DNA from: an uncultured Bacteroidales bacterium
GTDB taxonomy: Bacteria > Bacteroidota > Bacteroidia > Bacteroidales > B18-G4
NCBI GenBank assembly: GCA_964531985.1
Contig: CAZHFC010000007.1
Span: 21,194-85,193, forward strand
DNA length: 64,000 bases
Direction of reading: 5' to 3'
The position numbers and the translations under genes were made by a program. The notes below the pieces were generated by a model, which saw only the letters and a list, made by a program, of their open reading frames with translations, had not been told where the DNA came from and did no database searches. Each line of letters starts with the position of its first letter. Positions within the stretch are counted from its first letter, which is position 1. This document shows, piece after piece, positions 1-61,338 of this stretch.

Positions 1-1
1 G

Positions 2-2760: not shown

Positions 2761-3513
2761 TTATGGTTGACCGGGCTTTTTGCCGGGCTCTTTGAGGTAT
2801 TTCCTGCTCCAGATATTGTATTTCAGGATGCACCAGATGGCGCGGAAGCCGTCGCTGGCGCCAATCTTCTTGCCTTCGTCATAGGTCCTGCCGTAATAGG
2901 AAATGCCTACTTCATAGATCCGGATGCCCGGAAAACGGGAAATTTTGGCCGTAACCTCTGGCTCAAAACCGAAACGTCTTTCATGGAATCGGATCTTCTT
3001 CAGGTAATCGGCCCTGAACAGTTTATAACAGGTTTCCATATCGGACAGGTTCAGGTTGGTGAACATATTCGACAGGAAGGTGAGGAATTTGTTGCCGATG
3101 GAGTGCCAGAAGAAGAGGATACGGTGCGGTGTGCCACCCATGAAGCGTGAACCGTATACCACATCGGCCTGGCCGGCGATAACGGGCCTGAGCAGGATAT
3201 TGTATTCTTCCGGATCGTACTCCAGGTCGGCATCCTGGATGATGATATAATCGCCCGTGGCCTCTTCAATGCCCCGGTGAAGTGCAGCTCCCTTTCCCAT
3301 GTTGACAGGCTGTTCGAAAAACTTAATGTCATCTTCGGGATGCCTGCCGGTGTATTCCTTCACAACTTCCGCTGTTGCATCGGTGGAGCAGTCGTTTACG
3401 ATGATGATCTCCCGGGTGAACCCGCCGCTAAGCTTTACCGCAAGCACCTTGTCGAGGATCAGGTGGATGGTTTTTTCTTCATTGTAGGCAGGAATGATAA
3501 CAGAAAGCTTCAT
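2761..3513 (-). CDS. Glycosyltransferase family 2 (polyprenyl-phosphate sugar synthase-like, soluble type)
   Basis: [16 protein letters not shown]..., IIVNDCSTD and [15 protein letters not shown] (DxD) motifs. The track start at 3540 is a TTG; the ATG at 3513 gives the canonical GT2 N-terminus. Confidence 0.8.
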
Positions 3514-3594
3514 GGCCGCTGATTCGTGAATAAGTTTCAAATGTAAGAATTATCATGCGAATATAAGGAAGCTGCCGGGTGTTTGCCGAAAAAA

Positions 3595-5658
3595 TTATTC
3601 GGAGGGAGGGTGCTTTTTGGCTTTTAGCAGGTTGATGCCTTCTTCCACCAGCATATTCACAGTATTTTCCTTCATAAAGGATTCGATGGGCCATTCGATG
3701 CCGAATTCTTTATTCACATCCCGCTCGAGGCTTACGGCAGTGATGGAATCGAGCCCATAGGCCGATACGGCTTTGTCGGGGTCGATCTTCCCGGGGTCGA
3801 CCTTTAGTTTTTGCGATATCCAGTGGATCAGCCACTCGCGGAGGTACCCGGGCCGGAATCCTATCTCAGAGGCAAGTTCATCTGTTATGGCCGGCATCTT
3901 CCATGAAGCCACCATTTTAAGTTCATTTTCCTGCCAGGCTCTTTTCACGGCAAAGCGCTGGATCTTGCCACTGGATGTTTTTAAAATGCTGCCGGTACGG
4001 ATGAGCGACAATGCATGGGGCTGGATGCCGTATTCCGAAAAGATGGCCTGCCTGGCGGCTTCAAACACCTCATCGTGCTTGTCCGTATTCATGAAGGCGC
4101 GCTCTGTTTCCATCACCACCACGAGCTTTTCCCCCTCCCCGCTGTCGATGGAAAAGGCTGCGCTGGCATTCTTCCTGATCGCCGGGTGACAGCCCTCGGC
4201 GCAATGTTCTATGTCGTTGGGGAAGTAGTTCGCACCCCTGATGATGATCAGGTCTTTGCGGCGGCCGCTGATAAAGAGTTGACCGTGGCTGATGAAGCCC
4301 AGGTCGCCGGTGCGCAGCCAGGGCCCGTCATGGGTTCCGGCGATACGGGCATTGAAGGTTTCTTCCGTTTCCTGCGGCTTGTTCCAGTAGCCCTGGGCAA
4401 CGGAAGGGCCGCTGACCCATACCTCGCCAAGCATGCCGGCTGCTGAAGGTATTCTGGTAACGGGGTCGACAATGGCCACGCGCATGCCCAGCCAGGGGTA
4501 TCCGCAGGCGGTCAGCACACGGCTTTCCCTGCCTGAAGTGACGGAAAGCACCCTGTTCTCTTCCAGGGCCCTGGCATCGACCTCTGTGTACAGGGGTGCT
4601 GCCAGGTAATTGCCCCCGGTGACGATCAGCACCGATTCGGCCATGCCGTAACAGGGATAGAACTGTGCAGGCCTGAACCCCGAAGGCTTGAATTTTGCCG
4701 CAAACTCCTGCAGGGTTTCACGGCGTATCGGCTCGGCCCCGCAATACAGCGTACGCAACCCGCCAAGGTCAAACTGCGGGATGTCTTCATCCGCCACTTT
4801 TTCGATGCTGTAGTCGAAGGCAAAATTCGGACCGCCTCCGGTAGTGGCCCCGTAACGGCTCATGGACAGAAACCAGTTGGATGGATTTTTCAGGAAGCTG
4901 AGCGGCGGGATGATCACGTTGGAAGCACCCAGGTAGGCAGCCTGTATCAGGCAGCCGATCAGCCCCATGTCATGGAAGTTGGGGAGCCAGTTCACACCAA
5001 CCGAGTTTTCGTCAAAACCGAATGATTGCCTGATGCATTCCGAGTTATGGATGATGTTGGCATGGCTCACCATCACCCCGTTGGGGGTGCCCGTCGAACC
5101 TGAAGTGTATTGCAGCAAGGCAATATCGTTGCCCGATATGCCGGGGTCGGCCCATTTTTCCGCCAGGGATTCATCCATCTCCTCGTAAACCAGCATCTGC
5201 ATCCCTTCCGGGTAGCCTTCCGTTGAATGGTATTCCAGCAGTTCGGCATGGATGCCGGCGGTGCTGATGAGAAAGGCCGGGGATGAATCCTGAACGATCG
5301 ACCTGAAACGTTCGTTGGCCTTGTTCCTTTTTGGGGGATAGGCCGGCACGGCGATCATGCCGGCAAAGTGGCAGGCAAAAAAAGTCGTGATAAACTCAAT
5401 CCCCGTCGGGAATAACAGCAACACCCTGTCGCCCTTATTCCCCTTTTCCATGAGCACACAGGCTATGGCTTTGGCCCTGGCAACGAGGGCGGCATATGTG
5501 ATGCTGTCTTTTTCGTTCAGGCCGTCTTCAAGCAGGATGTAAACCACCTTGCCGGGCTGGTTCTTTTCGTGCTGCAGAAGCCGTTCTGCCATGGTGCCGG
5601 CCGGTAGAACGGTGCCCTCCATCGATGAGCCGAGATATTGCGGATAAGGTTTGTCCAT
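3595..5658 (-). CDS. Fatty acyl-AMP ligase (FAAL) fused to a C-terminal acyl/peptidyl carrier domain
   Basis: Adenylation motifs LQYTSGSTGTPNGV and GDLG. FAAL-type WLPNFHDMGLIG and AVPAYPPKRNK segments. The C-terminal 80 aa carries the phosphopantetheine site YGLDSITAVSL. Confidence 0.85.
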   Translation of the reverse strand: MDKPYPQYLGSSMEGTVLPAGTMAERLLQHEKNQPGKVVYILLEDGLNEKDSITYAALVARAKAIACVLMEKGNKGDRVLLLFPTGIEFITTFFACHFAGMIAVPAYPPKRNKANERFRSIVQDSSPAFLISTAGIHAELLEYHSTEGYPEGMQMLVYEEMDESLAEKWADPGISGNDIALLQYTSGSTGTPNGVMVSHANIIHNSECIRQSFGFDENSVGVNWLPNFHDMGLIGCLIQAAYLGASNVIIPPLSFLKNPSNWFLSMSRYGATTGGGPNFAFDYSIEKVADEDIPQFDLGGLRTLYCGAEPIRRETLQEFAAKFKPSGFRPAQFYPCYGMAESVLIVTGGNYLAAPLYTEVDARALEENRVLSVTSGRESRVLTACGYPWLGMRVAIVDPVTRIPSAAGMLGEVWVSGPSVAQGYWNKPQETEETFNARIAGTHDGPWLRTGDLGFISHGQLFISGRRKDLIIIRGANYFPNDIEHCAEGCHPAIRKNASAAFSIDSGEGEKLVVVMETERAFMNTDKHDEVFEAARQAIFSEYGIQPHALSLIRTGSILKTSSGKIQRFAVKRAWQENELKMVASWKMPAITDELASEIGFRPGYLREWLIHWISQKLKVDPGKIDPDKAVSAYGLDSITAVSLERDVNKEFGIEWPIESFMKENTVNMLVEEGINLLKAKKHPPSE

Positions 5659-5672
5659 GTGTTGATGTCAGA

Positions 5673-7154
5673 TTAAGTTCCCTTCCCGGCATTTCCGATA
5701 CCTGCGAATATTTCGGGGAATACACACTTCACATCCAGTATCTCGGCCCTGCCTTCGAAGCAGAAATTGCGCATATGCATGTTGGAAGAGAATGCCCAGG
5801 CGGCGGTGGTGGCATTTTGGGTGAGTTTCAGCGTATTCAGGAATTTCTTTTTCAGTGTTTTTACATTATACAATCTTTCCCAGTTCTCATATACGGCTTC
5901 CTCAAAGGTTTCGGGGCTCATTCTTTGCGGCTTGTAAACAACCTCCGCATAATTGTACCTTTCCCAGTCGGCAGGATAATTGGTATAAAGCAGCCTGCCT
6001 TCGTCCCTTAACCTGTTATACAGGGCGGTGCCGGGCAGGGGCGTAAGGATGGATGCCTGCATGATGTCGATGTCGGAATTCAGGATATAGCTGGTCCGGT
6101 TGTACAATGTTTCCGGCGTATCCCTGTCGAGACCGAAGATAAAGGCCCCGATCACGGCAAGTTCATATTTGTGTAATTTCCGGTAAACTTCTTCGTAGCG
6201 GTCTACTCCCAGCCTGAGGTTAACCTTTTTGTTCATCTGCTCAAGCTGGTCGATCAGTTCCGATTCAATGCCGAGGAAGATCGTTTTGCATCCGCTTCTG
6301 GCAGCCCATTCGAGCAGTTCCTCGTCTTCGCCGATGTTCATGGAAGCCGATCCGGCCCAATGCTTTTGCACCCCGCTCCGGGCTACGCCCTTAAAGAAAT
6401 CCAGTGCGTGCTGGCGGGCGGCCTTGCTGTAGCCCACAAAATTGTCGTCGACAATGTAAACCCGGTCTTTCTGAAGGTTTATGAAGTCATCGACCGACCT
6501 TTCGACCGAGCGCAGCCTGTATTTGCTCCCGTTAAAGGTATGCACCGAGCAAAACTCACATTTCATGGGGCATCCGCGGGTGGTTTGCATGCTGCTGAAT
6601 TCATAGCCCGGGTGGAAAAGGTCCTGCCTGGCCGAAGGCGAATCAACGATGGAGGGCAGTTTCGGACGGTAAATGTCGCGCAGCCGGTTGTTCTCAACAT
6701 CCCTGATCACCTCCTCCCATATTCCTTCGGCTTCGCCAACCACTACGGAGTCGACGTAGCGCAGGGCTTCCTGTGGCAACATGGAGGCATGGATGCCGCC
6801 GATCACCGTCGGGATCTTGTTTTTTCTGTATTCCGTGGCAATCTCATAGCACCGGTTTACCGTGGCCGTCAGTGAGGTGAAGCCAACCAGGTCGGCATCC
6901 GTATATTCGAAAGGGGTAAAATTTTCGTCGATGATCTCCACTTCCCAGTTTGGTGGCGTGAGGGCCGCAATGATGCCCAGGGCGATGGGGGGATAGATGG
7001 AGCCCTTGTCGAGCATGAGCCCTTTCCGCCGGCTATTGACGGGGTTGACCAGAAGCAGCTTATATGATCTTTTCTTTTTGTTCACGCTTATCCCGGAATT
7101 GCGGGCGTTTTTACCTGAAAGGGCTTGCCAGCAACAAATCGCGGCTGTTTTCAT
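5673..7154 (-). CDS. Cobalamin (B12)-binding domain radical SAM protein, paralog 1 (DUF4070-type C-terminus)
   Basis: N-terminal B12-binding-like Rossmann segment (DLVGFTSLTA...VIGGIHASMLPQEA). CxxxCxxC cluster motif TTRGCPMKCEFCSVHTF. C-terminal TPLPGTALYNRLRDEGRL. The ATG at 7154 overlaps the upstream gene by 44 nt; a GTG at 7085 (VNKKKRSYKLLLVNP) aligns better with the paralog N-termini. Confidence 0.85.
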   Translation of the reverse strand: MKTAAICCWQALSGKNARNSGISVNKKKRSYKLLLVNPVNSRRKGLMLDKGSIYPPIALGIIAALTPPNWEVEIIDENFTPFEYTDADLVGFTSLTATVNRCYEIATEYRKNKIPTVIGGIHASMLPQEALRYVDSVVVGEAEGIWEEVIRDVENNRLRDIYRPKLPSIVDSPSARQDLFHPGYEFSSMQTTRGCPMKCEFCSVHTFNGSKYRLRSVERSVDDFINLQKDRVYIVDDNFVGYSKAARQHALDFFKGVARSGVQKHWAGSASMNIGEDEELLEWAARSGCKTIFLGIESELIDQLEQMNKKVNLRLGVDRYEEVYRKLHKYELAVIGAFIFGLDRDTPETLYNRTSYILNSDIDIMQASILTPLPGTALYNRLRDEGRLLYTNYPADWERYNYAEVVYKPQRMSPETFEEAVYENWERLYNVKTLKKKFLNTLKLTQNATTAAWAFSSNMHMRNFCFEGRAEILDVKCVFPEIFAGIGNAGKGT

Positions 7155-8529
7155 CCAGCCCGAAAATGTCTTCTATGTTCTTCCCCGGCCTTTCGCCCTC
7201 ATACACCATGTTGTGATATTGCAGGTTGGAACCATACGACCAGATGGCCGCCAGCGGGCTGCGGGTCTGTTTCAGCGTCCGCAAAAACTTTTTCTTCAAT
7301 ATGTGGTCGTTATACAGCGCCTCCCAGTTCTTTCTCATCTCCCTGGCAAAGACTTCCGCCGTCATATTCCTGTGTGCAAACACCATTTCAACAAAGTCGT
7401 ATTTCTGCCAGTCGGAAGGGAAATCACGGTGTGCCACCTTCCCTTCTTTCATCATCCTGTTGTATAGCCCGGTGCCGGGAAGCGGGGTGAGCACGGTGGC
7501 CTGTACGGCGTCGATACTGGCATTGTTGATGTACTCAGTGCGCTGTGCCATGGTTTCGGGCGTGTCGCTCTCAAGACCGTATATGAAGGCACCCAAAACG
7601 CTGATGCCGTATTTGTGGATCTTGTCAAAAACCGCTTCGTAATGGTCAATTCCGATGCGGATGTTAAGCTTTTTATTGGTTTCTTCCAGTTGCTCGATCC
7701 TTTCAGATTCGATGCCAAGCAGTACCATCACGCAGCCGGCCCGGGCAGCCAGGCTCAGCACTTCTTCATTGTTGGCAAAGTTCATGGAAGCCGAACAGAA
7801 CCACTGCTTTTTGATGCCCCTTTCGATCATACCCCGGAACAAGGCAATGGCGCGGCGTTCCGACCGTTTTCCATAGCCAATGAGGTTGTCGTCGACAAAA
7901 TAGATCTTTTCGTGCGGGATGCTTTCAAGCTCGTCAAGGACTTCCTCAACGGGCCTTTCGCGGTATTTGTCGCCGTTAAAGGTGTGTACCGAACAAAAAT
8001 CGCACATCATCGGGCAGCCGCGCGTTGTTTGTATGCTTGCAAACTGGTAGCTTTTATGAAACAGATGACGGGCCGGGTAAACGGCATTTTTAAAAGGAAG
8101 GAGTTTGCCCTTGTAAATGCTTTTCATTTTACCCTGCTCAAAGTCGCTGATCAGCTCCGCCCATACGCTTTCCGCCTCACCCGTAACCACCGTGTCGACA
8201 TATTGCCCGGCTTCCTGCGGCATCATCGACGCATGGATGCCCCCCAGCACCGTGGCAATTCCCTTTTCACGGTATACCGCCGCCAGTTCATAGGCCCTGG
8301 CCACCCCTGATGTGAGGGCGGTGATGCCTACCAGGTCGGCTTCACGGTAAGAGAAACGATCGAAATTCTCATCCAGGATCTCTACTTCCCAGTGCTCCGG
8401 CGTGAGCGCTGCCACAATGCCAAGCCCGATCGGGGGGTAGATCACATGGCTGTGAAGGATGAGACCCTGCCGCTTCGTGCTCAGCGGGTTGATGAGCAAA
8501 AGTTTTTTCCTGTTCCCTTTAGTTGACAT
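7111..8529 (-). CDS. Cobalamin (B12)-binding domain radical SAM protein, paralog 2
   Basis: Same architecture as paralog 1: DLVGITALTS...LGGIHASMMPQEA, TTRGCPMMCDFCSVHTF, TPLPGTGLYNRMMKEGKV. The track start at 8538 is a TTG; the ATG at 8529 (MSTKGNRKKLLLINP) is preferred. Confidence 0.85.
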   Translation of the reverse strand: MSTKGNRKKLLLINPLSTKRQGLILHSHVIYPPIGLGIVAALTPEHWEVEILDENFDRFSYREADLVGITALTSGVARAYELAAVYREKGIATVLGGIHASMMPQEAGQYVDTVVTGEAESVWAELISDFEQGKMKSIYKGKLLPFKNAVYPARHLFHKSYQFASIQTTRGCPMMCDFCSVHTFNGDKYRERPVEEVLDELESIPHEKIYFVDDNLIGYGKRSERRAIALFRGMIERGIKKQWFCSASMNFANNEEVLSLAARAGCVMVLLGIESERIEQLEETNKKLNIRIGIDHYEAVFDKIHKYGISVLGAFIYGLESDTPETMAQRTEYINNASIDAVQATVLTPLPGTGLYNRMMKEGKVAHRDFPSDWQKYDFVEMVFAHRNMTAEVFAREMRKNWEALYNDHILKKKFLRTLKQTRSPLAAIWSYGSNLQYHNMVYEGERPGKNIEDIFGLDENSRDLLLASPFR

Positions 8530-8795
8530 GCCCGCCAAAGTTAATCATATTATGTTTAACAAAGCCCCCGGACCCATACAGACTGCATACTTATATCTGT
8601 TTAAACCAATCGGTCAGTTGTTTGTTCAGTTAACGGGGTTTGAAAGTTTCGCGAAGCGATGAAACTGCTGCGATGCCCGCTTTGTCATGGTTTTATCTCC
8701 GGCACCGTACATGGCTGCTCCACATCCCGAAACCGTGAGAAGCGGTCATCCTGATAATTATTTTCCACTTAAATGGCTTTCAAACAGAAAAAACG

Positions 8796-8825: not shown

Positions 8826-9068
8826 ATGATTGGCATCGAAGAATTCATTAAAAAGGTAGAAGAGGAGTTCGAGGACATGGAACCCGGTAAGCTGAAGCCC
8901 CATAGTGTGATCAGGGAACACTTTACCTGGGATTCGATCAGCGCGCTCATATTCATCGCACACGTGAATGTTGAATATGATGTGGTGATCACCGCCGATG
9001 ACCTGGTGAACTCCGAAACGGTGCAGGACCTTTATAACCTGGTTATGTCCAGGGCACAAGCTGCATAA
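8826..9068 (+). CDS. Stand-alone acyl carrier protein-like protein
   Basis: 80 aa, acidic, four-helix-sized, with candidate phosphopantetheine serine in FTWDSISALIF (DSx motif at the start of helix II). Ends 8 nt upstream of KASIII. The track start at 8820 is a TTG; the ATG is at 8826. Confidence 0.7.
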   Translation: MIGIEEFIKKVEEEFEDMEPGKLKPHSVIREHFTWDSISALIFIAHVNVEYDVVITADDLVNSETVQDLYNLVMSRAQAA

Positions 9069-9076
9069 TCCTCTAT

Positions 9077-10135
9077 ATGGCTATTTTCAGCATTCCTGAT
9101 ATCAGGCTTGCAGGTGTTGCCGCAAGCGTTCCCCGAAAGGAATATAATAACCGGGATTACGAATGGATTACTCCGCGGGAGCGGGAAGTGCTGATCAAAA
9201 CCGTCGGGGTTGAAAGGCGCCGGGTGGCGGAAGAAGGAATGACCACTTCGGACCTCTGCTATGAGGCAGCCCGGAAACTGATTTCAGGCCTTGGCTGGCA
9301 GGCCGGTGAGATCGATCTGCTGGTCTTCGTCAGCCAGTCGCGCGATTACCTCATCCCCGCCACGGCAGGCATACTGCAGGATCGCCTCGGGCTCCCCAAA
9401 ACATGCATGGCCTTCGACATCAGCCTTGGCTGCTCGGGTTACTTGTATGGCCTGTCGGTGATGGGCAGGATGATGAGCGGAGGGGCCATCCGCAAAGGCC
9501 TCCTGCTTGTCGGGGACGTATCCACGCAAAATACTTCTTATAAGGATAAAAGTACCTTCCCCCTCTTCGGCGATGCCGGAACGGCCACGGCCCTGGAATA
9601 TCAGGAAGGTGCAGGCCCCATGGACTTTAACCTGCAAACCGACGGATCGGGCTACCGGGCCATCATCATCCCCGACGGGGGTATCAGGAACCTCGCCGCC
9701 CGCGAACGTTCATTCGAGTATGAGGAGATTGCCGAGGGCATTATCAGGAACCGCTACCATATTGCCCTTGACGGGCTCGAGGTGTTCAACTTCTCCCTGC
9801 GCGAAGTGGCAGCCAACGTCAGGAGCCTGCTGCAGCATGCCGGTGCCGGCATCGACGACATCGATTTTTTTGTGATGCACCAGGCAAACCGGCTCATGAA
9901 TGAAACCATCAGGAAGCAACTGAAGATTGTCCCGGAAAAATATCCCTATTCGCTCCGCCTATACGGAAACACCAGCTCGGCCTCCATCCCGCTTACCTTC
10001 ATCACCCAGCTGGGAGTACCTCTGGGCTCGAAACGGCTGAGGTTGCTTTTGTCGGGCTTTGGGGTTGGACTTTCATGGGGCAGCGCACTGCTCACCACCG
10101 ACCATGTTTTTTGTCCTGAAATTATAGAAATGTAA
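9077..10135 (+). CDS. 3-oxoacyl-ACP synthase III (KASIII/FabH-like) condensing enzyme
   Basis: Cys-His-Asn triad contexts DISLGCSGYLYG, FVMHQANRLMNE and LYGNTSSASIP. 352 aa. Confidence 0.85.
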   Translation: MAIFSIPDIRLAGVAASVPRKEYNNRDYEWITPREREVLIKTVGVERRRVAEEGMTTSDLCYEAARKLISGLGWQAGEIDLLVFVSQSRDYLIPATAGILQDRLGLPKTCMAFDISLGCSGYLYGLSVMGRMMSGGAIRKGLLLVGDVSTQNTSYKDKSTFPLFGDAGTATALEYQEGAGPMDFNLQTDGSGYRAIIIPDGGIRNLAARERSFEYEEIAEGIIRNRYHIALDGLEVFNFSLREVAANVRSLLQHAGAGIDDIDFFVMHQANRLMNETIRKQLKIVPEKYPYSLRLYGNTSSASIPLTFITQLGVPLGSKRLRLLLSGFGVGLSWGSALLTTDHVFCPEIIEM

Positions 10136-10141
10136 AACCAT

Positions 10142-10894
10142 ATGTTACCCTTTTGCGATCTTACCGGAAAAACCGTGCTGGTTACCGGTGCCTCCTCGGG
10201 CATCGGGATGCAGGCAGCCATCAGCATCAGCAGGCATGGCGGAAAGCTCATCATTGCCGGACGGAACCGGGAAAAACTGGAAGAAACACGATCAAAACTG
10301 CAGGGCGACGGGCATCAGCTGTTTGCCGGCGACCTGACGGTCGAAGCGGAACTGGCTTCGCTGGCGGAGATGCTTCCCGGCCTCGACGGGCTGGTACACT
10401 GTGCCGGGGTTATCGGCCCCACACCGGCCAAATTCATCAGGGATGAGCATATCGATAAGATGTTCAGCATCAACTACCGCGTGCCCGTATTGCTCACCGC
10501 CGCCATCCTCAGCAGCAAGAAGCTGAACAGGAATGCCTCCGTCGTGCTGATGTCGTCGGTGGTTACGCGCTCACCCTATTTCGGCGGCAGTCTCTATGCC
10601 GGATCCAAGGGCGCCATCGAGACCTATGCCAAAACCCTTGCCCTGGAACTGGTTGAACGGGGCATCCGCGTAAATTGCCTTTCGCCGGGGCTGGTAAACA
10701 CTCCCATGATCACCGACCCCGCAAAGGAATCGAATCCGGCCATCGTTGACGACTCGCTGAAACGCTATATTGCAAAATATCCAATGGGAGTAGGCGAAGC
10801 CGAAGATGTTGCCAATGCCGTCATATTCCTGTTGTCGGATGAGGCACGCTGGATATCCGGTGCCAATATCGATATGGGCGCAGTGATCAGGTAA
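10142..10894 (+). CDS. SDR family oxidoreductase (FabG-like 3-oxoacyl reductase)
   Basis: TGASSGIG cofactor motif, catalytic YAGSKGA (YxxxK), NCLSPGLVNTPM. Starts 6 nt after KASIII. Confidence 0.85.
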   Translation: MLPFCDLTGKTVLVTGASSGIGMQAAISISRHGGKLIIAGRNREKLEETRSKLQGDGHQLFAGDLTVEAELASLAEMLPGLDGLVHCAGVIGPTPAKFIRDEHIDKMFSINYRVPVLLTAAILSSKKLNRNASVVLMSSVVTRSPYFGGSLYAGSKGAIETYAKTLALELVERGIRVNCLSPGLVNTPMITDPAKESNPAIVDDSLKRYIAKYPMGVGEAEDVANAVIFLLSDEARWISGANIDMGAVIR

Positions 10895-11009
10895 ACATCC
10901 GGGGTCAGGCAACGGTAGTTTGCCATTCTTTACGGATGCATCAAAAGATAATATTCTTCTCCATCACCCGAAATATTCTTATTTTTGTTTTAAACAATAC
11001 ATCGCAGCG

Positions 11010-11933
11010 ATGTCAAAACCCGGCTATTCCGTAGTTGTACCCGTTTATAACAGCGAAGAAACACTCAGGGAACTCTTTGAAAGGGCGACGGCCGTTTTTC
11101 AACGGCTCAATGCCACTTTCGAAATTATTTTCGTGGAAGACTGCGGAACCGACAATAGCTGGGAAGTGTTGAAGGAACTGAAGAACGCGCATCCCGGAGA
11201 GGTTACCGCCATAAGGCTGCACCGTAATTACGGGCAGCATAACGCCACCATTTGCGGATTGGGTTTTGCCCGGGCCGACAGGGTCATCACCATGGATGAT
11301 GACCTGCAGCATCCGCCCGAAGAGATCCTGAAACTGGTTGAACGCTTTGATGAAGGCGATACCGATATCGTTTACGGCGTTTTTTCCCGGAAACGGCATT
11401 CGAAACTCCGGAACATAGGCAGCAATTCCGTAAAAAAAACCTCCCGGATGCTCCTGAAAGGTACCGGAAAAGGATCTTCCTTCAGATTGATCAAAAAGGA
11501 GATCATCGACAAGCTGCTGCAAAATATCATCCATTTTGTCTTTATCGACCAGTTGTTGCTCTGGCATACCAACGATTTTGCCTTCGTGGAGGTTGAACAT
11601 CACCCCAGGCGGATTAAAAAATCGGGATATACGGCCAAAAAGCTGTTTATGCTGGTAACCGACCTGACCTATTTCTATACGAACATCCCATTAAAGATCA
11701 TGGTATACGGCGGCCTGCTGATGTCGATGGTGTTTTTCCTGTTCGGTCTGCGTTTCTTATTGCAAAAATGGCTTTTTAATGTTACGGTGCCGGGCTATAC
11801 CTCTACCATCGTTACCATCCTTTTCAGTACGGGGATCATCGTGTTCAGCCTGGGTATCATTGGCGGTTATCTCAGCCGCATTTATATGGTGCAGAGCAAG
11901 AAACCACCTTTTACCATCAAGAAGATCTTATAA
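11010..11933 (+). CDS. Glycosyltransferase family 2, ArnC/GtrB-like polyprenyl-phosphate glycosyltransferase with two C-terminal TM helices
   Basis: YSVVVPVYNSEETL, FVEDCGTDNS, TMDDDLQHPPEE. C-terminal hydrophobic segments (IMVYGGLLMSMVFFLFGL and IVTILFSTGIIVFSLGIIGGYL). The track start at 10920 is a TTG; the ATG at 11010 gives the canonical N-terminus. Confidence 0.8.
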   Translation: MSKPGYSVVVPVYNSEETLRELFERATAVFQRLNATFEIIFVEDCGTDNSWEVLKELKNAHPGEVTAIRLHRNYGQHNATICGLGFARADRVITMDDDLQHPPEEILKLVERFDEGDTDIVYGVFSRKRHSKLRNIGSNSVKKTSRMLLKGTGKGSSFRLIKKEIIDKLLQNIIHFVFIDQLLLWHTNDFAFVEVEHHPRRIKKSGYTAKKLFMLVTDLTYFYTNIPLKIMVYGGLLMSMVFFLFGLRFLLQKWLFNVTVPGYTSTIVTILFSTGIIVFSLGIIGGYLSRIYMVQSKKPPFTIKKIL

Positions 11934-13136
11934 TTCTTTTTTATACACCGGTTTCCATCCCGTTCGGCAGCTGTTGCCGCTTTTTTGCGACATTTGTTTC
12001 ATCCGTCCGTCGAGTTCACGTAGTTTTTTCCTGTTGAAAATGCCCAGGTAGAAGCGGCCTACCGCCAGGGGTGCTTTGCTGAGGATGGTCATGCGCAGGC
12101 GATAGGGGAATTTGTCGATCATCCATGTAGCCATGTAGAGAATGCCCGCAAAGGCTTTGCCGGGCAGGCAACGGATATGGGCCCGGACCCCCGGTTTTGG
12201 ATATGCTTTTTCATGCCCGGTAAGGGCTGCATAGGGTCCGGCACAGGCATCGGCCACCCGGATCTCCGAAGGTTTCAGCTCTTTCTTCCATAAGCCGGTC
12301 CTGCCGGTATTGATCTTCTTTAACAGGCTGGAATGGTATTTCAGGATGAGTTCGTTCGGGTAGATCTTCAGCACTTCGCTGCTTTTTTTGTAGAAATCGA
12401 AAGGAACGGGGCTGAAAGGGATGCCGATAAACCTGCAGAGTTCCGAAAATACCTCCTCCGGCCTGGAAACAAGGTCTTCGTAACGGATTTCCTTATGCGT
12501 GCCCGGATACCTGCCGGCAGCCTGCCTGAATTTTTTGACAAAATAACGCCATTTGCTGGTGGTAACGGAAATAAATGGCAATTCAAAGTCGACGTTCCTG
12601 ATCGAAACAAAATTATCGCGGTAGTCTCTGACGATATGTATGAACCTGGCTTCGGGGAAGATTTTCAGCAGCCTTTCCGTATAGATCGTGTAACCGGGAT
12701 TTTTATCACCCAGTGCCAGGATTACTCCGTGTCTGAATATTGACCGGTATTCATGATAGACAAGCTTGCAAAGTGTTCCGTAACTATAATCTCCCCGGCA
12801 TTGCATAAGGCTGTGATAAAGCTTGTTCCGGTCGAGGGGCCAAAGGTCGAAACGCCATTGGCGGAAAAGGTCTTCATAAAATGATTGCAGTTGTTTTTTC
12901 GACCAGTTGGTGATTTTCCCGTATTTTGGATAAAGGTTGATGATCAGCTGGCATTCGGGGGGTACCATCACGTTGGGATGTGCATCGAAGAGGGTACGAA
13001 GCAGGGTTGTTCCTGAACGCGGCCTGCCAACTACAAAAAACATTGGGATTTCCTTCAGTTGCCTGGCACTGAGATGCCGCTGCCGTTGCAGCAGAAGGAT
13101 TTTATTCTGGTCTTTTTCTGTAAAGAAATGATTCAT
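11928..13136 (-). CDS. Sulfotransferase family protein (PAPS-dependent type)
   Basis: 5'-PSB loop FFVVGRPRSGTTLLRTLF, 3'-PB-like IHIVRDYRDNFVS. The track start at 13187 is a TTG inside a hairpin; the ATG at 13136 (MNHFFTEKDQ) is preferred. Converges on the GT2 gene with a 6-nt overlap. Confidence 0.75.
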   Translation of the reverse strand: MNHFFTEKDQNKILLLQRQRHLSARQLKEIPMFFVVGRPRSGTTLLRTLFDAHPNVMVPPECQLIINLYPKYGKITNWSKKQLQSFYEDLFRQWRFDLWPLDRNKLYHSLMQCRGDYSYGTLCKLVYHEYRSIFRHGVILALGDKNPGYTIYTERLLKIFPEARFIHIVRDYRDNFVSIRNVDFELPFISVTTSKWRYFVKKFRQAAGRYPGTHKEIRYEDLVSRPEEVFSELCRFIGIPFSPVPFDFYKKSSEVLKIYPNELILKYHSSLLKKINTGRTGLWKKELKPSEIRVADACAGPYAALTGHEKAYPKPGVRAHIRCLPGKAFAGILYMATWMIDKFPYRLRMTILSKAPLAVGRFYLGIFNRKKLRELDGRMKQMSQKSGNSCRTGWKPVYKKEL

Positions 13137-13154: not shown

Positions 13155-13195
13155 AAAAAGGGTTGCCAGCCTTATTAGGGTTGGCAACCCTTTTT
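13155..13195 (-). other. Strong stem-loop at the flippase/sulfotransferase junction, with the flippase stop codon in its loop
   Basis: AAAAAGGGTTGCCA (13155-13168) is perfectly complementary to TGGCAACCCTTTTT (13182-13195). Three further pairs extend the stem (gcc/ggt), leaving a 7-nt loop that contains the TAA stop (13175-13177). Confidence 0.6.
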
Positions 13196-14488
13196 TAAAA
13201 CCCTGTCAACCAACAGTTTAATTTCTTTAAAATCGCCCCGTTTTACCAGGAGAATATCCCGTACCGGAACTTTGAGAATACGGGAATACATGGCCAGGTA
13301 GCCGATGGATCCGGCCGTATAGCTCACGTTGGTGGCCATGGCGGCCCCAGCACCTCCGTAGGAGGGTATCCACCAAAGGTTCAGCAGGATGTTCAGGACC
13401 AGGGCAGGCAAAAAAACGTAGAGGGTTATCTCCGGTCTCCCCAGCCCGGCCAGGTGGCCGCTGAGGATGCGGAACATCACCACCATGATGATGCCGGGCA
13501 GGATCAGTTGTATGATGCGGATGCTTTCGTGATAAGCCTGCCCGAAGATGAGGGGAACCAGAAAGGGTACCAGGAAGAACATGGCAACGGCCAGGAGGAG
13601 GCTGAAAAGGAACGACAGCCTCAGCAATACCCCCGTTGTTTCTTTCATCTCGGCCTGGTCGCGCGCATTCGCCGTGCGGCTGAAAACCACGATGCCCACT
13701 GCCAGCGGTAGTTGCCAAAGTTGTTCCGCCACCGATGCCCCGATGGAATAGATACCCACCTCGGCCGTGTCGCGCAGCTTTTCGATAAGCAGGATGTCGA
13801 TACGGTAGTTCAGTTGCAGGATGAAAAACGAAACAGAGAACAAAATGCCCAGCCTCAGCAGGCTGATGATGATCTTTTTATGGAAGCGGAGACGGATACG
13901 GAACGACTTCCCGAGAAGGAACAGTCCGTACACGGCTACCATTGCCGCTGAAGCAAGAAAGGCGACAACCGCACCGATGATCCCCGCTTTGAGCACCCAA
14001 ACCAGTAAAATGATGAGCAGCAGGTTGAGGGCGTTGGTGATCCAGTTCATCTGATTGGCTTTGCTGATCTCATCATTTCCGAGAAAAACGCCGCCGAAAT
14101 AGATAATGGCCAGCCGTCCGGGAATGACCATCAGCACCAGCCCGATCATCAGGGGAGTAAACGAAGGGCCGTCGTAGATCCAGTAGGCGAGGGCTGAGAT
14201 AACGATGCCTAATGCCGATGCAATGAGCAGCAATACGATCACGGAAGACACAAGCTGGTCGTGGTTGTGTTTTTTCTTGCCCACATGAAAAATGGCCGAT
14301 CCCCTGATGCCGAGGTTGGTCAGGCTGACCACGATCATTGGAATGATCACCAGTGCCATGAAGATACCGTACTCCTCAGGGCCCAGCAGGCGTGCCAGCA
14401 CTATGCTGGCCGCAAATCCCGCCAGGATAGAAAAAACATTGCTGTTAAAAACACCGATCACATCGCGCGAAAAGCGTCGTTTGGCCAT
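13175..14488 (-). CDS. MOP-superfamily polysaccharide/oligosaccharide flippase (Wzx-like)
   Basis: 437 aa with about 12 hydrophobic helices. The N-terminus FNSNVFSILAGFAASIVLARLLGPEEYG is typical of polysaccharide biosynthesis (Polysacc_synt) exporters. ATG start. Confidence 0.75.
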   Translation of the reverse strand: MAKRRFSRDVIGVFNSNVFSILAGFAASIVLARLLGPEEYGIFMALVIIPMIVVSLTNLGIRGSAIFHVGKKKHNHDQLVSSVIVLLLIASALGIVISALAYWIYDGPSFTPLMIGLVLMVIPGRLAIIYFGGVFLGNDEISKANQMNWITNALNLLLIILLVWVLKAGIIGAVVAFLASAAMVAVYGLFLLGKSFRIRLRFHKKIIISLLRLGILFSVSFFILQLNYRIDILLIEKLRDTAEVGIYSIGASVAEQLWQLPLAVGIVVFSRTANARDQAEMKETTGVLLRLSFLFSLLLAVAMFFLVPFLVPLIFGQAYHESIRIIQLILPGIIMVVMFRILSGHLAGLGRPEITLYVFLPALVLNILLNLWWIPSYGGAGAAMATNVSYTAGSIGYLAMYSRILKVPVRDILLVKRGDFKEIKLLVDRVLKKGCQP

Positions 14489-14619: not shown

Positions 14620-16002
14620 TTATTTTTTTAATTCCTGCAGGCTTTTCAGCAGACGGTTCGGGTCGAGGGGTTCCTTTTTGTTCCCGAAGCAAACATTGTG
14701 TCTTTCCACGTTCGAGAGATAAGCCCATGCGGCAGCCCTGGCATTTCGTGTTTCCTTCAGGCTCCTCAGCATTTTTTTCTGAAGCAGCTTGTCATCGTAC
14801 ATGATCGACCAGTTCTGGTACATGGCATCCATGAATTCCTGCGGATCCATCTTCAGGGGTTGGTGTACCACCTCGAGGAAATGGTAATGCTGCCAGTCGG
14901 CGGGATAGTTTGTATAAAGCAGGCGTTTTTCGGCTTCCATACGCTTGTAGAGCCCGGTCCCCGGCAAGGGTGTAACGATGGTGGCCTGCATGGCGTCCAT
15001 GCCGCTATCGATGGCAAAGCGGGTTCGTGCAAAAAGATCATCCCTGCTGTCGCTGTCGAGGCCATAGATCAACGCTCCCAGCACGCTGATGCCATGCCTG
15101 TGGATACGGTCGAATACCTCCTGGTATTTATCAATGCCCATCCGCAGGTTCAGCTTTTTGTTGGCTTCTTTCAGTTGTTCTTCCTTTTCCGATTCGATGC
15201 CGATGAGGATCATGCGGCAACCGCTTTCGGCGGCAAGCCTCAGCACCTCTTCATTGTCGGCAACGTTCAGGGAGGCCTGGCAGTACCAGTCTTTTTTGAT
15301 CCCCCGCCTGATCATGCCCCTGAAGAGGCTGATGGCGCGTTCCGACGACTCCCGGGAATATCCGATGATGTTGTCGTCTACAAAGTACACCATCTCCTGG
15401 GGTATGCTTTCCAGTTCGTCGAGGACTTCTTCAACGGGGCGTTGCCGGTATTGTGATCCGTTAAAGGTATGCACCGAACAAAAGTCGCAGTTCATGGGGC
15501 ATCCCCGCGAGGTTTGTATGTTGGCATAGGTATAGGCAGGATGAAAGAGGTCGCGGCGCGGCATAACGGCATTGTTCATGGGTAGAAGCCTGCCTTGATA
15601 CAGTTTCTGAAGGTTTTTGGCTTCAAAGTCGCTGATGACTTTCCCCCAGATGCTCTCCGCCTCACCGCTCACCACGGCGTCGGCATGCAGTGACGCTTCC
15701 CCGGGAAGCATGGAGGCATGGATGCCGCCGATCACCACCGGGATGCCTTCGGCACGGTAGATGGAAGCAATCTCGTAAGCGCGGTTAACATTGGCCGTCA
15801 TGGCAGTGATGCCAACAAGATCGGCTTTGCGAAATTCGAAATCGTCGAAGTTCTCGTCGATGATCTCTGTATCCCAGCCGGCAGGCGTCAGCCCGGCAAT
15901 AATCCCCAGCGCAAGCGGTGGCGACATGGCATGGGTGTCGTAAAACCCGTCGCGGGTATGCCTGTTGAAAGGATTGACCAGTATCAGTTTTTTCCTGCGC
16001 AT
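14620..16002 (-). CDS. Cobalamin (B12)-binding domain radical SAM protein, paralog 3
   Basis: DLVGITAMTA...VIGGIHASMLPGEA, TSRGCPMNCDFCSVHTF, TPLPGTGLYKRMEAEKRL. Shares the run RPVEEVLDELESIP with paralog 2. The track start at 16008 is a GTG; the ATG at 16002 (MRRKKLILVNP) is preferred. Confidence 0.85.
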   Translation of the reverse strand: MRRKKLILVNPFNRHTRDGFYDTHAMSPPLALGIIAGLTPAGWDTEIIDENFDDFEFRKADLVGITAMTANVNRAYEIASIYRAEGIPVVIGGIHASMLPGEASLHADAVVSGEAESIWGKVISDFEAKNLQKLYQGRLLPMNNAVMPRRDLFHPAYTYANIQTSRGCPMNCDFCSVHTFNGSQYRQRPVEEVLDELESIPQEMVYFVDDNIIGYSRESSERAISLFRGMIRRGIKKDWYCQASLNVADNEEVLRLAAESGCRMILIGIESEKEEQLKEANKKLNLRMGIDKYQEVFDRIHRHGISVLGALIYGLDSDSRDDLFARTRFAIDSGMDAMQATIVTPLPGTGLYKRMEAEKRLLYTNYPADWQHYHFLEVVHQPLKMDPQEFMDAMYQNWSIMYDDKLLQKKMLRSLKETRNARAAAWAYLSNVERHNVCFGNKKEPLDPNRLLKSLQELKK

Positions 16003-16024
16003 CTGCACCTGTGCTGAAGTATTG

Positions 16025-16032: not shown

Positions 16033-16081
16033 TTATTTTTAAGCAAGCAGGTGGCGCGGAAGCTTGCACGCAAGGAATGCT

Positions 16082-16089
16082 TACTTTTG
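16082..16089 (+). promoter_or_regulatory. Candidate -7 promoter box (TACTTTTG) for the GNAT gene
   Basis: Exact TAnnTTTG, 24 nt upstream of the ATG at 16114. Sits back-to-back with the minus-strand box 49 nt away. Confidence 0.4.
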
Positions 16090-16113
16090 CAGCACCATCC
16101 ACCTTTTAGTGTT

Positions 16114-16779
16114 ATGATCATATCAAAATACAATATCCGCTTTACGCGTCTCAGCGAAGACGACATCGAGCTTGTCAGGAAGTGGCGCAACCACCCGAGC
16201 ATCAAAAAGTATATGGTCTACCGCGAATACATCAGCCCTGAGATGCAGGAAGCCTGGTTCAGGTCGGTAAATAATAACGATAACCTGTATTTTATTATCG
16301 AGTATAAGGGTAAAAAGATAGGTCTGATCAATGGCAAGGACATCAACTGGGAAGAAAAATCGATGGAAACCGGCATCTTCATCTGGGACAGGTATTACCG
16401 CAAAACCCATATCCCGACCTTGTGTACCATCATATTTGCCGAGCTTGGCGTTGCAATCTGGGGTTTGAAGCCGCGTGCCACCATCCTGCGAAGCAATGAA
16501 CGGGCTTTAAAATACAATAAGATGCTTGGTTTTAAGGTGATTGAAGACGATCCTACCAAGGAGTACGTCAGGCTGTCGATGGAGAAGGACAGCATGGGCT
16601 TCATTGCCAGGAAGCTGAAAGCGGCCATCAACCTTTTTGCCGGGGATGAACCCATTCAGCTGATGATTGAAAAGGAAGACATGGAGAGCGGCATCTATGA
16701 TATCATCAGGCAGGGCATTGACCCGTCTCTGGTAAAGAGCGTAAAAGATGAAGGAGACCGCATTATATACCATTTCTGA
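16114..16779 (+). CDS. GNAT family N-acetyltransferase (PseH/RimL-like) with an extra roughly 75-aa C-terminal extension
   Basis: IRFTRLSEDDIELVRKWRNHPSIKKYM N-terminus, typical of sugar-nucleotide N-acetyltransferases of the GNAT fold; RSNERALKYNKMLGFK acetyl-CoA region. The ATG at 16114 is preferred over the upstream start at 16051. Confidence 0.7.
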   Translation: MIISKYNIRFTRLSEDDIELVRKWRNHPSIKKYMVYREYISPEMQEAWFRSVNNNDNLYFIIEYKGKKIGLINGKDINWEEKSMETGIFIWDRYYRKTHIPTLCTIIFAELGVAIWGLKPRATILRSNERALKYNKMLGFKVIEDDPTKEYVRLSMEKDSMGFIARKLKAAINLFAGDEPIQLMIEKEDMESGIYDIIRQGIDPSLVKSVKDEGDRIIYHF

Positions 16780-45694: not shown

Positions 45695-45750
45695 TATCAT
45701 GAAAGCCAATATGCTATCTTTAACGCGCCTGCAGCCATAAAGCCGAGCAA

Positions 45751-61318: not shown

Positions 61319-61338
61319 TCATAATCAAAAGACCTTTC

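Follow-up and report, generated by a model that had tools for sequence, protein, structure and literature searches.

What chiefly emerges from this analysis is the recurrent genomic context of a sulfotransferase gene, observed over 94 related loci, in which the pairing of that gene with a flippase gene stands foremost. The gene lies at 11928..13136 on the minus strand of the window (the whole 64-kb stretch of DNA that was analysed), and its 402-aa product belongs to the TPST/CurM-like clade of the Pfam family Sulfotransfer_3. The outcome is the definition of a coherent, widespread and uncharacterised Bacteroidota gene cluster, the product of which is probably a sulfated surface glycolipid or glycan. 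The sulfotransferase would serve this conserved envelope-glycoconjugate pathway as a cytoplasmic PAPS-dependent tailoring enzyme.

The reading frame opens with an ATG at 13136 and closes with a stop codon at 11928-11930; this start was preferred over an upstream TTG at 13187 because homologue alignments begin at the Met of the ATG. A preliminary description of this DNA had placed the gene between a flippase and an ArnC-like GT2, and both flanking genes indeed match by profile. The MOP (Wzx/Polysacc_synt) flippase gene (13175..14488, minus strand; Pfam Polysacc_synt 4.8e-19) lies 38 nt upstream, and the GT2 gene is convergent, with a stop codon that overlaps the final sulfotransferase codon. 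The assignment to the PAPS-type sulfotransferases also holds, as both Sulfotransfer_3 (PF13469; E=9.3e-32, 111.5 bits, cut-off 27) and Sulfotransfer_1 (PF00685; E=1.1e-11, 45.1 bits, cut-off 22) score above their Pfam cut-offs. Conservation was scored over 82 homologue sequences with identity down to 28%. The segment GRPRSGTTLL (aa 37-46) had been named as a 5'-phosphosulfate-binding (PSB) loop, and its core GRPRSGTT (aa 37-44; 13005..13028, minus strand) aligns with the PSB loop of the TPSTs and is conserved among the 82 sequences, with R40 and G42 invariant and G37, R38, S41, T43 and T44 at least 90% conserved. Glu61 (12954..12956, minus strand), likewise conserved in at least 90% of the homologues, aligns in TPST1 alignments with the Glu of the TPST GEET motif, which we take from the TPST2 structure to be the catalytic base. 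Lys145, within a GDKNP motif (12696..12710, minus strand) aligned with TPST1, is invariant and occupies the position of the catalytic Lys of the TPSTs. The 3'-phosphate-binding motif RDYRDNFVS (aa 170-178; 12603..12629, minus strand) aligns with TPST 'RDGRASVHS', and its R170 and S178 are invariant.

Structural comparison leads to the same enzyme class. The AF2 model of the protein (pLDDT 91.9, pTM 0.89) retrieved 50 PDB matches at E <= 0.001 in Foldseek, every one of them a sulfotransferase-fold protein (best E about 1e-11). The best of these were TPST1/2 and the CurM and Ols sulfotransferases, at E values of 1e-11 to 1e-9 (1.7e-9 for CurM and 2.5e-9 for Ols), and a family profile searched against solved structures ranked them in the same way (TPST1 8e-36, CurM ST 2e-29, Ols ST 4e-28). 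Together with the conserved active-site positions, the model and its matches rule out a non-catalytic P-loop fold, which had been raised as a possible objection. By sequence and model, the active site is intact and the protein is a true O-sulfotransferase of the PAPS type. Its nearest relatives by sequence and fold act on peptides (TPST) or on 3-hydroxyacyl-ACP (CurM/Ols) and are not known carbohydrate sulfotransferases.

Beyond the catalytic core lies a C-terminal helical module (11982..12188, minus strand; helices at aa 317-340, 345-367 and 369-385), delimited by the AF2 model, conservation and the hydrophobicity pattern. The extension is shorter than the roughly 130 aa first proposed, amounting to about 95 aa past the core that can be aligned with TPST and Sulfotransfer_1, which ends at about aa 305-310. 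Model pLDDT stays at or above 90 up to about aa 380, and disorder is predicted for aa 390-402. Family-wide conservation of this part is limited to aa 317-372 and takes in the first two helices. Alignments with TPST and CurM contain no counterpart of the module. The stretch FAGILYMATWMIDKF (aa 329-343) had been characterized as amphipathic or hydrophobic; hydropathy and moment scans upheld its amphipathic character but not hydrophobicity of a transmembrane type, and a Kyte-Doolittle scan of the protein found no transmembrane-grade segment (best 19-residue mean 1.16). A transmembrane anchor was accordingly rejected, as Kyte-Doolittle, hydrophobic-moment and family-wide column-hydrophobicity scans all show amphipathic helices. 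Judged from the sequence, it is plausible that these helices associate the sulfotransferase with the membrane; a role in packing against the catalytic core or in an oligomer interface is just as conceivable.

The genes that surround the sulfotransferase are predominantly those of acyl-chain and sugar metabolism. The rSAM-flippase-sulfotransferase unit begins with a B12-binding radical SAM (rSAM) enzyme identified by profile matches (14620..16008, minus strand), the third of three paralogues in the window; the other two (5673-7154 and 7111-8538, together 5673..8538, minus strand) were identified in the same way. Next to this unit lies a PseH-like GNAT N-acyltransferase (16051..16779, plus strand), which scores 66.9 bits against the NCBIfam PseH model, below the cut-off of 93.1, and has PseH as its best PDB match (8e-10). 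On the other side, the ArnC/GtrB-type polyprenyl-phosphate GT2 (10920..11933, plus strand; Glycos_transf_2 3.8e-30) has C-terminal hydrophobic segments and a likely start at a Met at about 11010; it scores 157 bits against the ArnC model, below the cut-off of 529, and 133 bits against PgfS. It follows, on the same strand, a FabG-like SDR ketoreductase (10142..10894) and a KAS III (FabH-like) condensing enzyme (9077..10135), both recognized by profile, and a stand-alone acyl carrier protein of 80 aa (8826..9068; PP-binding 26.1 bits, cut-off 20.8). This ACP is an annotated gene on the source contig and is kept in five related loci (L001, L002, L006, L017 and L021); the preliminary description had not included it. 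Farther along are a fatty acyl-AMP ligase fused to an ACP (FAAL-ACP; 3595..5658, minus strand; AMP-binding 2.5e-65 plus PP-binding, and 340-405 bits against FAAL models), a second GT2 of soluble type found by profile match (2761..3540, minus strand), and a 618-aa protein (891..2747, minus strand) that is possibly a GT-C glycosyltransferase, its PMT_2 match being weak (22.6 bits, below the cut-off of 26.1) and its PDB sequence matches zero. An NAD-dependent sugar epimerase/dehydratase, again a profile match, is truncated by the start of the window (1..904, plus strand), and the locus extends about 9 kb upstream of it with two GT2 genes, two LPG_synthase_TM genes, a methyltransferase and an FrhB-like protein. 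The FAAL-ACP, stand-alone ACP, KAS III and FabG-like SDR thus make up, within one cluster, a predicted 3-hydroxyacyl-ACP-producing set. No aminotransferase occurs in the window cluster; such genes are present only in related loci. Compared with an Arn-type pathway, the GT2 lies below equivalog cut-offs, the flippase is of the MOP rather than the ArnE/F type, the GNAT is PseH-like, and the GT-C match is weak.

That this acyl/glycosyl setting is no local accident is evident from a survey of 94 related loci (51 of them at least 10 kb long), over which the synteny is kept down to 32% sulfotransferase identity. A same-strand flippase gene lies within 300 bp of the sulfotransferase gene in 49 of the 94 loci, and in 32 of the 51 longer ones. 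The two genes overlap in one locus (L014), and in two assemblies they are represented by a single 770-aa protein (P0185), with Polysacc_synt at aa 8-410 and Sulfotransfer_3 at aa 439-647, which adjoins another sulfotransferase and a DegT aminotransferase. The fusion may reflect a frameshift artefact where two genes overlap, and one sample may have given rise to both assemblies. The sulfotransferase also recurs with PseH-like GNAT (35/94 loci), ArnC-like GT2, ACP-KASIII-SDR, FAAL-ACP and B12 radical-SAM genes, and at least two of the acyl/sugar genes are found in 28 of the 51 longer loci. GNAT, GT2, SDR and KAS3 genes adjoin sulfotransferases only 25-32% identical to the window enzyme (L012 and L013), and FAAL-ACP adjoins homologues of 37-48% identity (L011, L050 and L091). 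A DegT/WecE-type aminotransferase accompanies 23 related loci. At least two sulfotransferase paralogues are encoded in 22 of the 94 loci; some carry two to four paralogues or tandem domains, and in some a pair of sulfotransferases flanks the flippase. In variant clusters, the partner of MBOAT gave a non-significant match to DltD (E=0.12). The ArnC-like GT2 is missing from six variants (L055-L057, L078, L082 and L092), which implies that the pathway can proceed without a polyprenyl-phosphate sugar as intermediate. Conservation of the acyl/glycosyl linkage across the 94 loci supports a sulfate ester as the product of the locus.

The supply of PAPS was traced by Pfam scans of the larger ORFs of the window and by tblastn searches of the window, the 94 related loci and the contig extensions with the E. 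coli proteins CysC, CysD and CysN. Neither cysC nor cysDN was found in the 64-kb window or in the stretches read of the source contig (about 77 of its 94 kb). The only match in the whole search was APS kinase, in five related loci: in four (L008, L023, L024 and L025) its gene (Pfam 3e-59) immediately follows that of the sulfotransferase orthologue, and in the fifth (L039) it lies inside the cluster. Another locus (L014) carries a sulfate symporter and a gene of the CysQ-type phosphatase family 6-9 kb away.

We judge the chances to be even that the sulfotransferase works on the cytoplasmic side, where it would O-sulfate an acyl-aminosugar or glycan intermediate bound to the membrane immediately before this intermediate is flipped. 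The order of steps that we infer would begin with FAAL-ACP, which may prime the ACP-KASIII-SDR set to yield a 3-hydroxyacyl thioester, and the PseH-like GNAT would then attach the 3-hydroxyacyl group to an amino sugar. The ArnC-like GT2 and other glycosyltransferases would build the intermediate on a membrane carrier, at which point the C-terminal amphipathic helices, contact with the flippase, or both might hold the sulfotransferase at the inner membrane face. Sulfate from PAPS would pass to a hydroxyl of the sugar or of the 3-hydroxyacyl chain, and the putatively co-transcribed MOP flippase would carry the product, sulfated and anchored in the membrane, across to the outer face.

Two characterized pathways resemble this scheme in part. 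In Halobacterium salinarum, two sulfotransferases (VNG1056C and VNG1057C, one a membrane protein and the other predicted to be cytoplasmic) modify a glycan built on dolichol phosphate; sulfated dolichyl-phosphate tetrasaccharides have been isolated, and the pathway in which these dolichol-phosphate-bound glycans are sulfated includes a flippase (PMC11980604). As likened by pathway description, this pair mirrors the paired sulfotransferases flanking the flippase in related loci, whereas the archaeal system is one of N-glycosylation without acyl-chain machinery. The second is the Nod-factor pathway of rhizobia, where NodH, also a Sulfotransfer_3 enzyme, sulfates a lipo-oligosaccharide (PMC11625862). 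In overall logic the two agree: both combine a GT2 and an N-acyltransferase with an ACP and ketosynthase dedicated to a special fatty acid, and add a PAPS-dependent sulfotransferase and an exporter; in some loci PAPS-supply genes lie nearby. The sulfotransferases themselves are not orthologous to NodH/NoeE (NoeE NF052394 gives 34.8 bits against a cut-off of 500, with the PSB loop at aa 30-68 alone matching), and the glycosyltransferase, acyltransferase and exporter belong to other families. On a broader and more tentative view, many uncultured anaerobic and environmental Bacteroidota might, by a Nod-factor-like logic, make an envelope molecule of a class not seen before, a sulfated, perhaps multiply sulfated, N-(3-hydroxyacyl)-aminosugar glycolipid, possibly with rSAM-methylated chains, with the sulfotransferase docked on or even fused to a dedicated MOP flippase such that sulfation and export would be physically coupled.

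Among the alternatives, the one that survives best, although we think it unlikely, is a sulfated lipid: the 3-hydroxyl of the acyl chain made by FAAL-ACP and ACP-KASIII-SDR would be sulfated and the sulfate kept, the acceptor being a free acid, an N-acyl amide or an acyl-sugar, and the flippase would export the (amino)lipid with no sulfation of sugar. The cluster contains the full 3-hydroxyacyl-producing set, the CurM/Ols sulfotransferases, whose substrates are 3-hydroxyacyl thioesters, score nearly as high as the TPSTs, and several variants drop the GT2 while retaining KAS3, SDR and GNAT. There is also a precedent in gut bacteria: ErSULT acts on hydroxy fatty acids, and sulfated acyl chains, probably borne by N-acyl amides, were detected in mice (PMC13449962). 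Against it, the wider locus is rich in glycosyltransferase and sugar-modifying genes, a sugar aminotransferase is encoded in 23 related loci, and in four loci (L008, L014, L024 and L026) only the flippase and sulfotransferase are present, accompanied or not by cysC, and no acyl gene lies within 10 kb. This explanation overlaps the preferred one of a sulfated acyl-aminosugar or glycan, the sole difference being which hydroxyl receives the sulfate.

The same clade relationship raises the less probable case that sulfate is only an activating group, as in CurM and Ols: a 3-hydroxyacyl-ACP would be sulfated and the sulfate would leave by decarboxylative elimination, giving a terminal alkene or rearranged chain and a sulfate-free product. 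The CurM and Ols sulfotransferase domains (PDB 4gbm and 4gox) fall in the clade of the window enzyme, as the profile and Foldseek values above indicate, and the FAAL-ACP, ketosynthase, ketoreductase and sulfotransferase alongside one another equal the olefin-synthase domain set minus AT and TE (PMC11837247). Those enzymes are domains within ACP-ST-TE modules for which sulfate is a leaving group, whereas the window enzyme stands alone, outside any such module, and a search of the window cluster, the adjoining 9 kb upstream and the gene families that recur over the 94 loci yielded no thioesterase or alpha/beta-hydrolase. A hydrocarbon would have no need of an MOP flippase, yet the flippase is the tightest partner, its adjacency and fusion being the strongest associations observed, and where paralogues or tandem domains bring the number of sulfotransferases to between two and four, multiple retained sulfates are a better fit than one leaving group.

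TPST1 and TPST2 (PDB 5wrj and 3ap1) are the top matches by both sequence and fold, and have in common with the window enzyme the PSB loop PRSGTTL, the positions of the catalytic Glu and Lys, and the 3'-phosphate motif RDxR..S. In eukaryotes, TPSTs reside in the Golgi as type II membrane proteins and have peptide substrates. B12-rSAMs and GNAT acyltransferases occur in RiPP lipopeptide pathways. One could conceive of a TPST/RaxST-like enzyme that sulfates a ribosomal lipopeptide, itself also modified by the B12 rSAMs and GNAT and exported by the MOP/MATE-type protein, and we regard this as very improbable. The TPSTs lack the C-terminal module at aa 317-385, their TM-scores (on target) are only 0.65-0.68, and no peptide substrate is evident at the window locus. 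No precursor-peptide gene was found there: the sole conserved small ORF of the one intergenic region of appreciable size (540 bp) is the ACP, and a Cys-rich 31-aa ORF in that region (8659-8754) is not conserved, even in a 97%-identical relative. The locus holds no leader peptidase or ABC exporter and is dominated by sugar genes, and the rSAMs match the RiPP enzyme ApyD weakly (73-90 bits, cut-off 750), no better than they match BchE, HpnJ or HpnR.

Equally far-fetched is a scavenging or xenobiotic enzyme with an external sterol or small-molecule substrate and an incidental position in the locus: BtSULT (BT0416), of the same Pfam family and the only characterised sulfotransferase that we found for the phylum (PMC13449962), would be the model. 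Against this stand the fusion protein and the synteny with biosynthetic genes and the flippase, which holds at identities as low as 32%. BtSULT and Eubacterium ErSULT are, like the window enzyme, bacterial and PAPS-dependent, and they make sulfate esters; the likeness of BtSULT, a Sulfotransfer_3 enzyme from Bacteroidota, is one of Pfam membership as given by that source rather than of sequence alignment. Their substrates are host steroids and culture-supplied hydroxy fatty acids, respectively, and the accessible text describes no flippase/acyl/glycosyl cluster for either (PMC13449962). All 13 related loci that bear organism titles are Bacteroidota MAGs, at least one with AnMBR (anaerobic membrane bioreactor) in its isolate name, so that a supply of host sterols is not evident.

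To our knowledge, two kinds of sulfur-containing lipid have been ascribed to Bacteroidota: sulfonolipids, and steroid sulfates derived from the host. The earlier premise that sulfur lipids of the phylum are sulfonates and not sulfate esters is incomplete, since the Bacteroides enzyme BtSULT makes cholesterol and steroid sulfate esters (PMC13449962), and sulfate esters are thus not unprecedented in the phylum. Our literature searches found no endogenous pathway to a sulfated lipid or glycolipid described in the phylum, and neither the gene cluster nor sulfated glycolipids described in Bacteroidota. Should the locus make a sulfated glycolipid or glycan endogenous to the cell, a large uncultured group of Bacteroidota would gain a strongly anionic surface component, which would matter for the charge of the envelope, for resistance to phages and antimicrobials, and for sulfur cycling. 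The conserved pairing of sulfotransferase and flippase, with its occasional fusion, would exemplify tailoring coupled to membrane translocation and could serve as a simple genomic marker for such pathways. Recent horizontal transfer of the locus was considered and rejected, as GC content is about 0.50 and flat along its whole length.

The sulfotransferase (ST) gene lies on the minus strand at 11928-13136, running from an ATG at 13136 to a stop codon at 11928-11930 and encoding 402 residues; an alternative TTG start at 13187 would add 17 residues upstream, and homologue alignments begin at the ATG methionine. Both motifs singled out in the preliminary description occur in this ORF (GRPRSGTTLL at residues 37-46 and FAGILYMATWMIDKF at residues 329-343), and its placement between a flippase and an ArnC-like GT2 was borne out: the ST gene begins 38 nt downstream of a same-strand MOP/Wzx-type flippase gene (13175-14488), and the GT2 gene (10920-11933) is convergent on it, with its stop codon overlapping the final ST codon. 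The protein matches both Pfam models that had been put forward for it, Sulfotransfer_3 (E=9.3e-32) and Sulfotransfer_1 (E=1.1e-11). In an 82-sequence alignment reaching down to 28% identity, R40, G42, K145, R170, S178, W196 and E220 are invariant, and E61, conserved in at least 90%, is aligned to TPST's catalytic-base Glu. The family profile matches TPST1 (8e-36), TPST2 (3e-31), the CurM ST (2e-29) and the Ols ST (4e-28), and the cytosolic SULTs at only about 1e-7. An AlphaFold2 model from the same alignment has a mean pLDDT of 91.9 and a pTM of 0.89, and every PDB match found with it by Foldseek at E <= 0.001 is a sulfotransferase-fold protein, with TPST1/2 at the top followed by the CurM/Ols ST. 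Profile matches, invariant residues, model and Foldseek matches together rule out a non-catalytic P-loop fold, the outcome that would have undone the proposed PAPS-type assignment. The enzyme belongs to the TPST/CurM clade of the PAPS-dependent sulfotransferase superfamily and displays all of the defining features that could be tested. As judged from its sequence, it is predicted to be catalytically competent and cytoplasmic, with neither a signal peptide nor a transmembrane segment.

The C-terminal extension, previously put at roughly 130 residues, measures about 95, because the region alignable with TPST/Sulfotransfer_1 stops near residues 300-310. AlphaFold2 predicts three helices here (317-340, 345-367 and 369-385) followed by a disordered tail, with pLDDT at or above 90 up to about residue 380. 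Helices 1 and 2 are kept family-wide; P325, G326, T337, P344, R348, L352 and P356 are invariant among the closer homologues, and of these P344 still reaches at least 90% conservation in the wide homologue set. Some 23 residues at the N-terminus and 25 at the C-terminus are peculiar to the subclade whose proteins have around 400 residues. These two helices are the most hydrophobic parts of the protein, yet reach just 1.16 and 0.97 in a 19-residue Kyte-Doolittle window, and throughout the family they follow an i, i+3/4 hydrophobic pattern whose intervening positions are often charged. Such modest values and such a pattern indicate amphipathic helices and rule out a transmembrane segment. As modeled, helices 1 and 2 could serve as an interfacial anchor to the membrane, cover the core as a lid, or provide an oligomer or partner interface.

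The ST gene closes a minus-strand unit of B12-rSAM (14620-16008), flippase and ST, from which the gene of a PseH-like GNAT (16051-16779; best PDB match PseH) diverges. Convergent on the ST is an operon that gains a gene absent from the preliminary list, a stand-alone ACP of 80 residues (8826-9068, plus strand; PP-binding, 26.1 bits) directly upstream of KAS III, which yields the order ACP-KASIII-SDR-GT2 with a FabG-like SDR and the ArnC-like GT2; the ACP core 'HFTWDSI(N/S)ALIFIAHVNVEYDVVI' is kept in five related loci. Two more B12-rSAM genes (5673-7154 and 7111-8538) lie on the minus strand, as do, beyond this pair, genes for a FAAL-ACP fusion, a soluble GT2 and a 618-aa protein (PMT_2 below threshold), and a sugar epimerase/dehydratase gene is truncated by the edge at the window start. 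The three B12-rSAMs are paralogues (50-59% identical by tblastn) with counterparts in 27 of the 94 related loci. The models that fit them best (HpnJ, HpnR, BchE and 'lipid biosynthesis B12/rSAM') all score far below threshold, and their substrate may be an acyl chain or a sugar. The window sits in JGI metagenome contig Ga0334899_1000184 (94,365 bp), and in the 9.1 kb that precede window position 1 (extension locus L097, 12748-21857) are the remainder of the epimerase gene and genes for two GT2s, an FrhB/FdhB-like protein, a methyltransferase, two LPG_synthase_TM proteins and two further proteins, some 550-590 residues long, that have no annotation. The ST is therefore located inside a large glycoconjugate locus with acyl-chain machinery, whose GC content is even at about 0.50 and so gives no sign of recent acquisition. 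None of cysC, cysD and cysN was found in the window or the further contig stretches read, about 77 kb in all out of 94 kb. Among related loci, L008, L023, L024 (11261-11749) and L025 have an APS kinase gene (Pfam 3.4e-59) directly after the ST orthologue, L039 carries cysC inside the cluster, and L014 has a Na+/sulfate symporter gene and an inositol-monophosphatase/CysQ-family gene 6-9 kb upstream. Such neighbours make a good, if indirect, case for PAPS use in the family.

The ST has 2,284 word-index homologues, and a full scan at E <= 1e-30 gave 351 representatives (50% clustering). We compared 94 loci with the window proteins by tblastn (13 genome, 2 genome-scale-contig and 79 metagenome loci), the genome loci all deriving from MAGs labelled Bacteroidota, Bacteroidales or Lentimicrobiaceae. 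A flippase gene lies on the same strand within 300 bp of an ST gene in 49 of the 94 loci; among the 51 that span at least 10 kb, 32 have this arrangement and 28 carry at least two of GNAT, KAS III, SDR, ArnC-like GT2 and FAAL-ACP. The genes typically run [ST]-flippase-ST-GNAT-(GT2)-SDR-KASIII-FAAL-ACP; B12-rSAMs are optional, and some variants lack the GT2. GNAT, GT2, SDR and KAS III accompany ST homologues just 25-32% identical to the window enzyme in L012 and L013. At least two ST paralogues are present in 22 loci, and the paralogues sort into context-specific clades; in that of the window enzyme, the flippase lies upstream and a convergent GT2 downstream. On contig Ga0209417_1000158, some 25 kb separate two parts of the cluster (L029 and L042), with one ST paralogue in each: three rSAMs-flippase-ST, and GNAT-rSAM-ST-GT2-SDR-KASIII. 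All-against-all ORF clustering added recurrent partners that the window cluster lacks: a DegT/WecE-type sugar aminotransferase in 23 loci, an MBOAT in 16, its 324-aa partner in 15, and a GT-C-like TPR protein in 8. The MBOAT variants (L011, L045, L050-L057, L078, L082, L083, L088 and L092), with their 324-aa partner (a non-significant DltD hint, E=0.12) and FAAL-ACP, resemble a Dlt-like trans-membrane acylation system, which is absent from the window. A second glycan gene set in the window comprises a small phosphoglycosyl transferase (Bac_transf) and a DegT aminotransferase (34759-36569), and a GT1 and a Wzy_C/O-antigen-ligase-like protein (44423-47034); its aminotransferase could in principle serve the ST cluster, which itself has none.

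In one 770-aa protein, P0185, a MOP flippase (residues 8-410) and an ST of this family (residues 431-755) are joined. It is encoded in two assemblies, GCA_002754885.1 and that of SRR6011892 (L100 3293-5605 and L101 41-2353), adjoins another ST and a DegT aminotransferase, and may be either a true fusion or the product of a frameshift where two genes overlap. P0041, P0195, P0259, P0261 and P0264 each have two ST domains and P0122 has four, and in many loci two ST paralogues flank the flippase, which suggests multiply sulfated products in other lineages. The ST is coupled genetically, and apparently sometimes physically, to a MOP flippase among genes for sugar and 3-hydroxyacyl biosynthesis.

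We propose that ACP, KAS III, SDR and FAAL-ACP would produce a 3-hydroxyacyl donor, that the PseH-like GNAT would N-acylate an amino sugar, and that glycosyltransferases would build a membrane-bound intermediate, to a hydroxyl of which the ST would add sulfate at the cytoplasmic face before the flippase moves the anionic product out. Sulfation has to come before flipping, since PAPS is cytoplasmic; the ST domain of P0185 is C-terminal to its flippase domain, and the flippase C-terminus is cytoplasmic in known MOP topologies. Alternatively, it might be the acyl 3-hydroxyl and not the sugar that receives the sulfate, which we regard as rather unlikely. The FAAL-ACP/KS/KR/ST parallel (PMC11837247) also recalls CurM/Ols-like activating sulfation, in which the sulfate is then lost, but the missing thioesterase, the flippase coupling and the multiple STs make this decidedly improbable; the ST is not a CurM/Ols-type module, as it lacks the module context and no thioesterase was found in the cluster, in the 9 kb upstream or among the gene families recurrent in the 94 loci. 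TPST/RaxST-like sulfation of a peptide in a lipopeptide pathway is barely credible, as no gene for a precursor turned up and the ACP is the sole conserved small ORF of the one sizeable intergenic region, and a BtSULT-like scavenging enzyme, contradicted by the conserved synteny, is just as implausible. Orthology to NodH or NoeE is likewise rejected: the ST scores 34.8 bits on the NoeE model, whose cut-off is 500.

In its proposed function, the locus comes closest to the Nod-factor pathway, where a GT2 and an N-acyltransferase work alongside an ACP and a ketosynthase of their own, the Sulfotransfer_3 enzyme NodH, genes for PAPS and an exporter (PMC11625862), and to Halobacterium, where a dolichol-phosphate-linked glycan is sulfated in a pathway that likewise includes a flippase (PMC11980604). 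The view that Bacteroidota sulfur lipids are sulfonates only is incomplete, as BtSULT, a Bacteroides Sulfotransfer_3 enzyme, produces steroid sulfate esters (PMC13449962); the literature searched describes neither this cluster nor an endogenous sulfated glycolipid for Bacteroidota. The original observation is confirmed and its interpretation partly supported. The ST represents a new uncharacterised subfamily within a known enzyme class, its hallmarks being the conserved C-terminal amphipathic module and the conserved MOP flippase partnership in a widespread Bacteroidota acyl/glycosyl cluster. As an enzyme class this is nothing unusual; what merits experimental study is the conserved cluster with its flippase coupling and the putative sulfated product.

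Elsewhere in the window, an 858-aa minus-strand ORF at 61315-63891 has no Pfam match and is probably spurious, because a 1,234-aa Fe-S/molybdopterin oxidoreductase is called on the plus strand at the same place on the near-identical ENA contig k141_211628. A 1,152-aa protein (48593-52051, plus strand) and a 987-aa protein of L099 (16186-19149) have PPDK_N (PEP-utilising, ATP-grasp-like) as their sole annotated domain.
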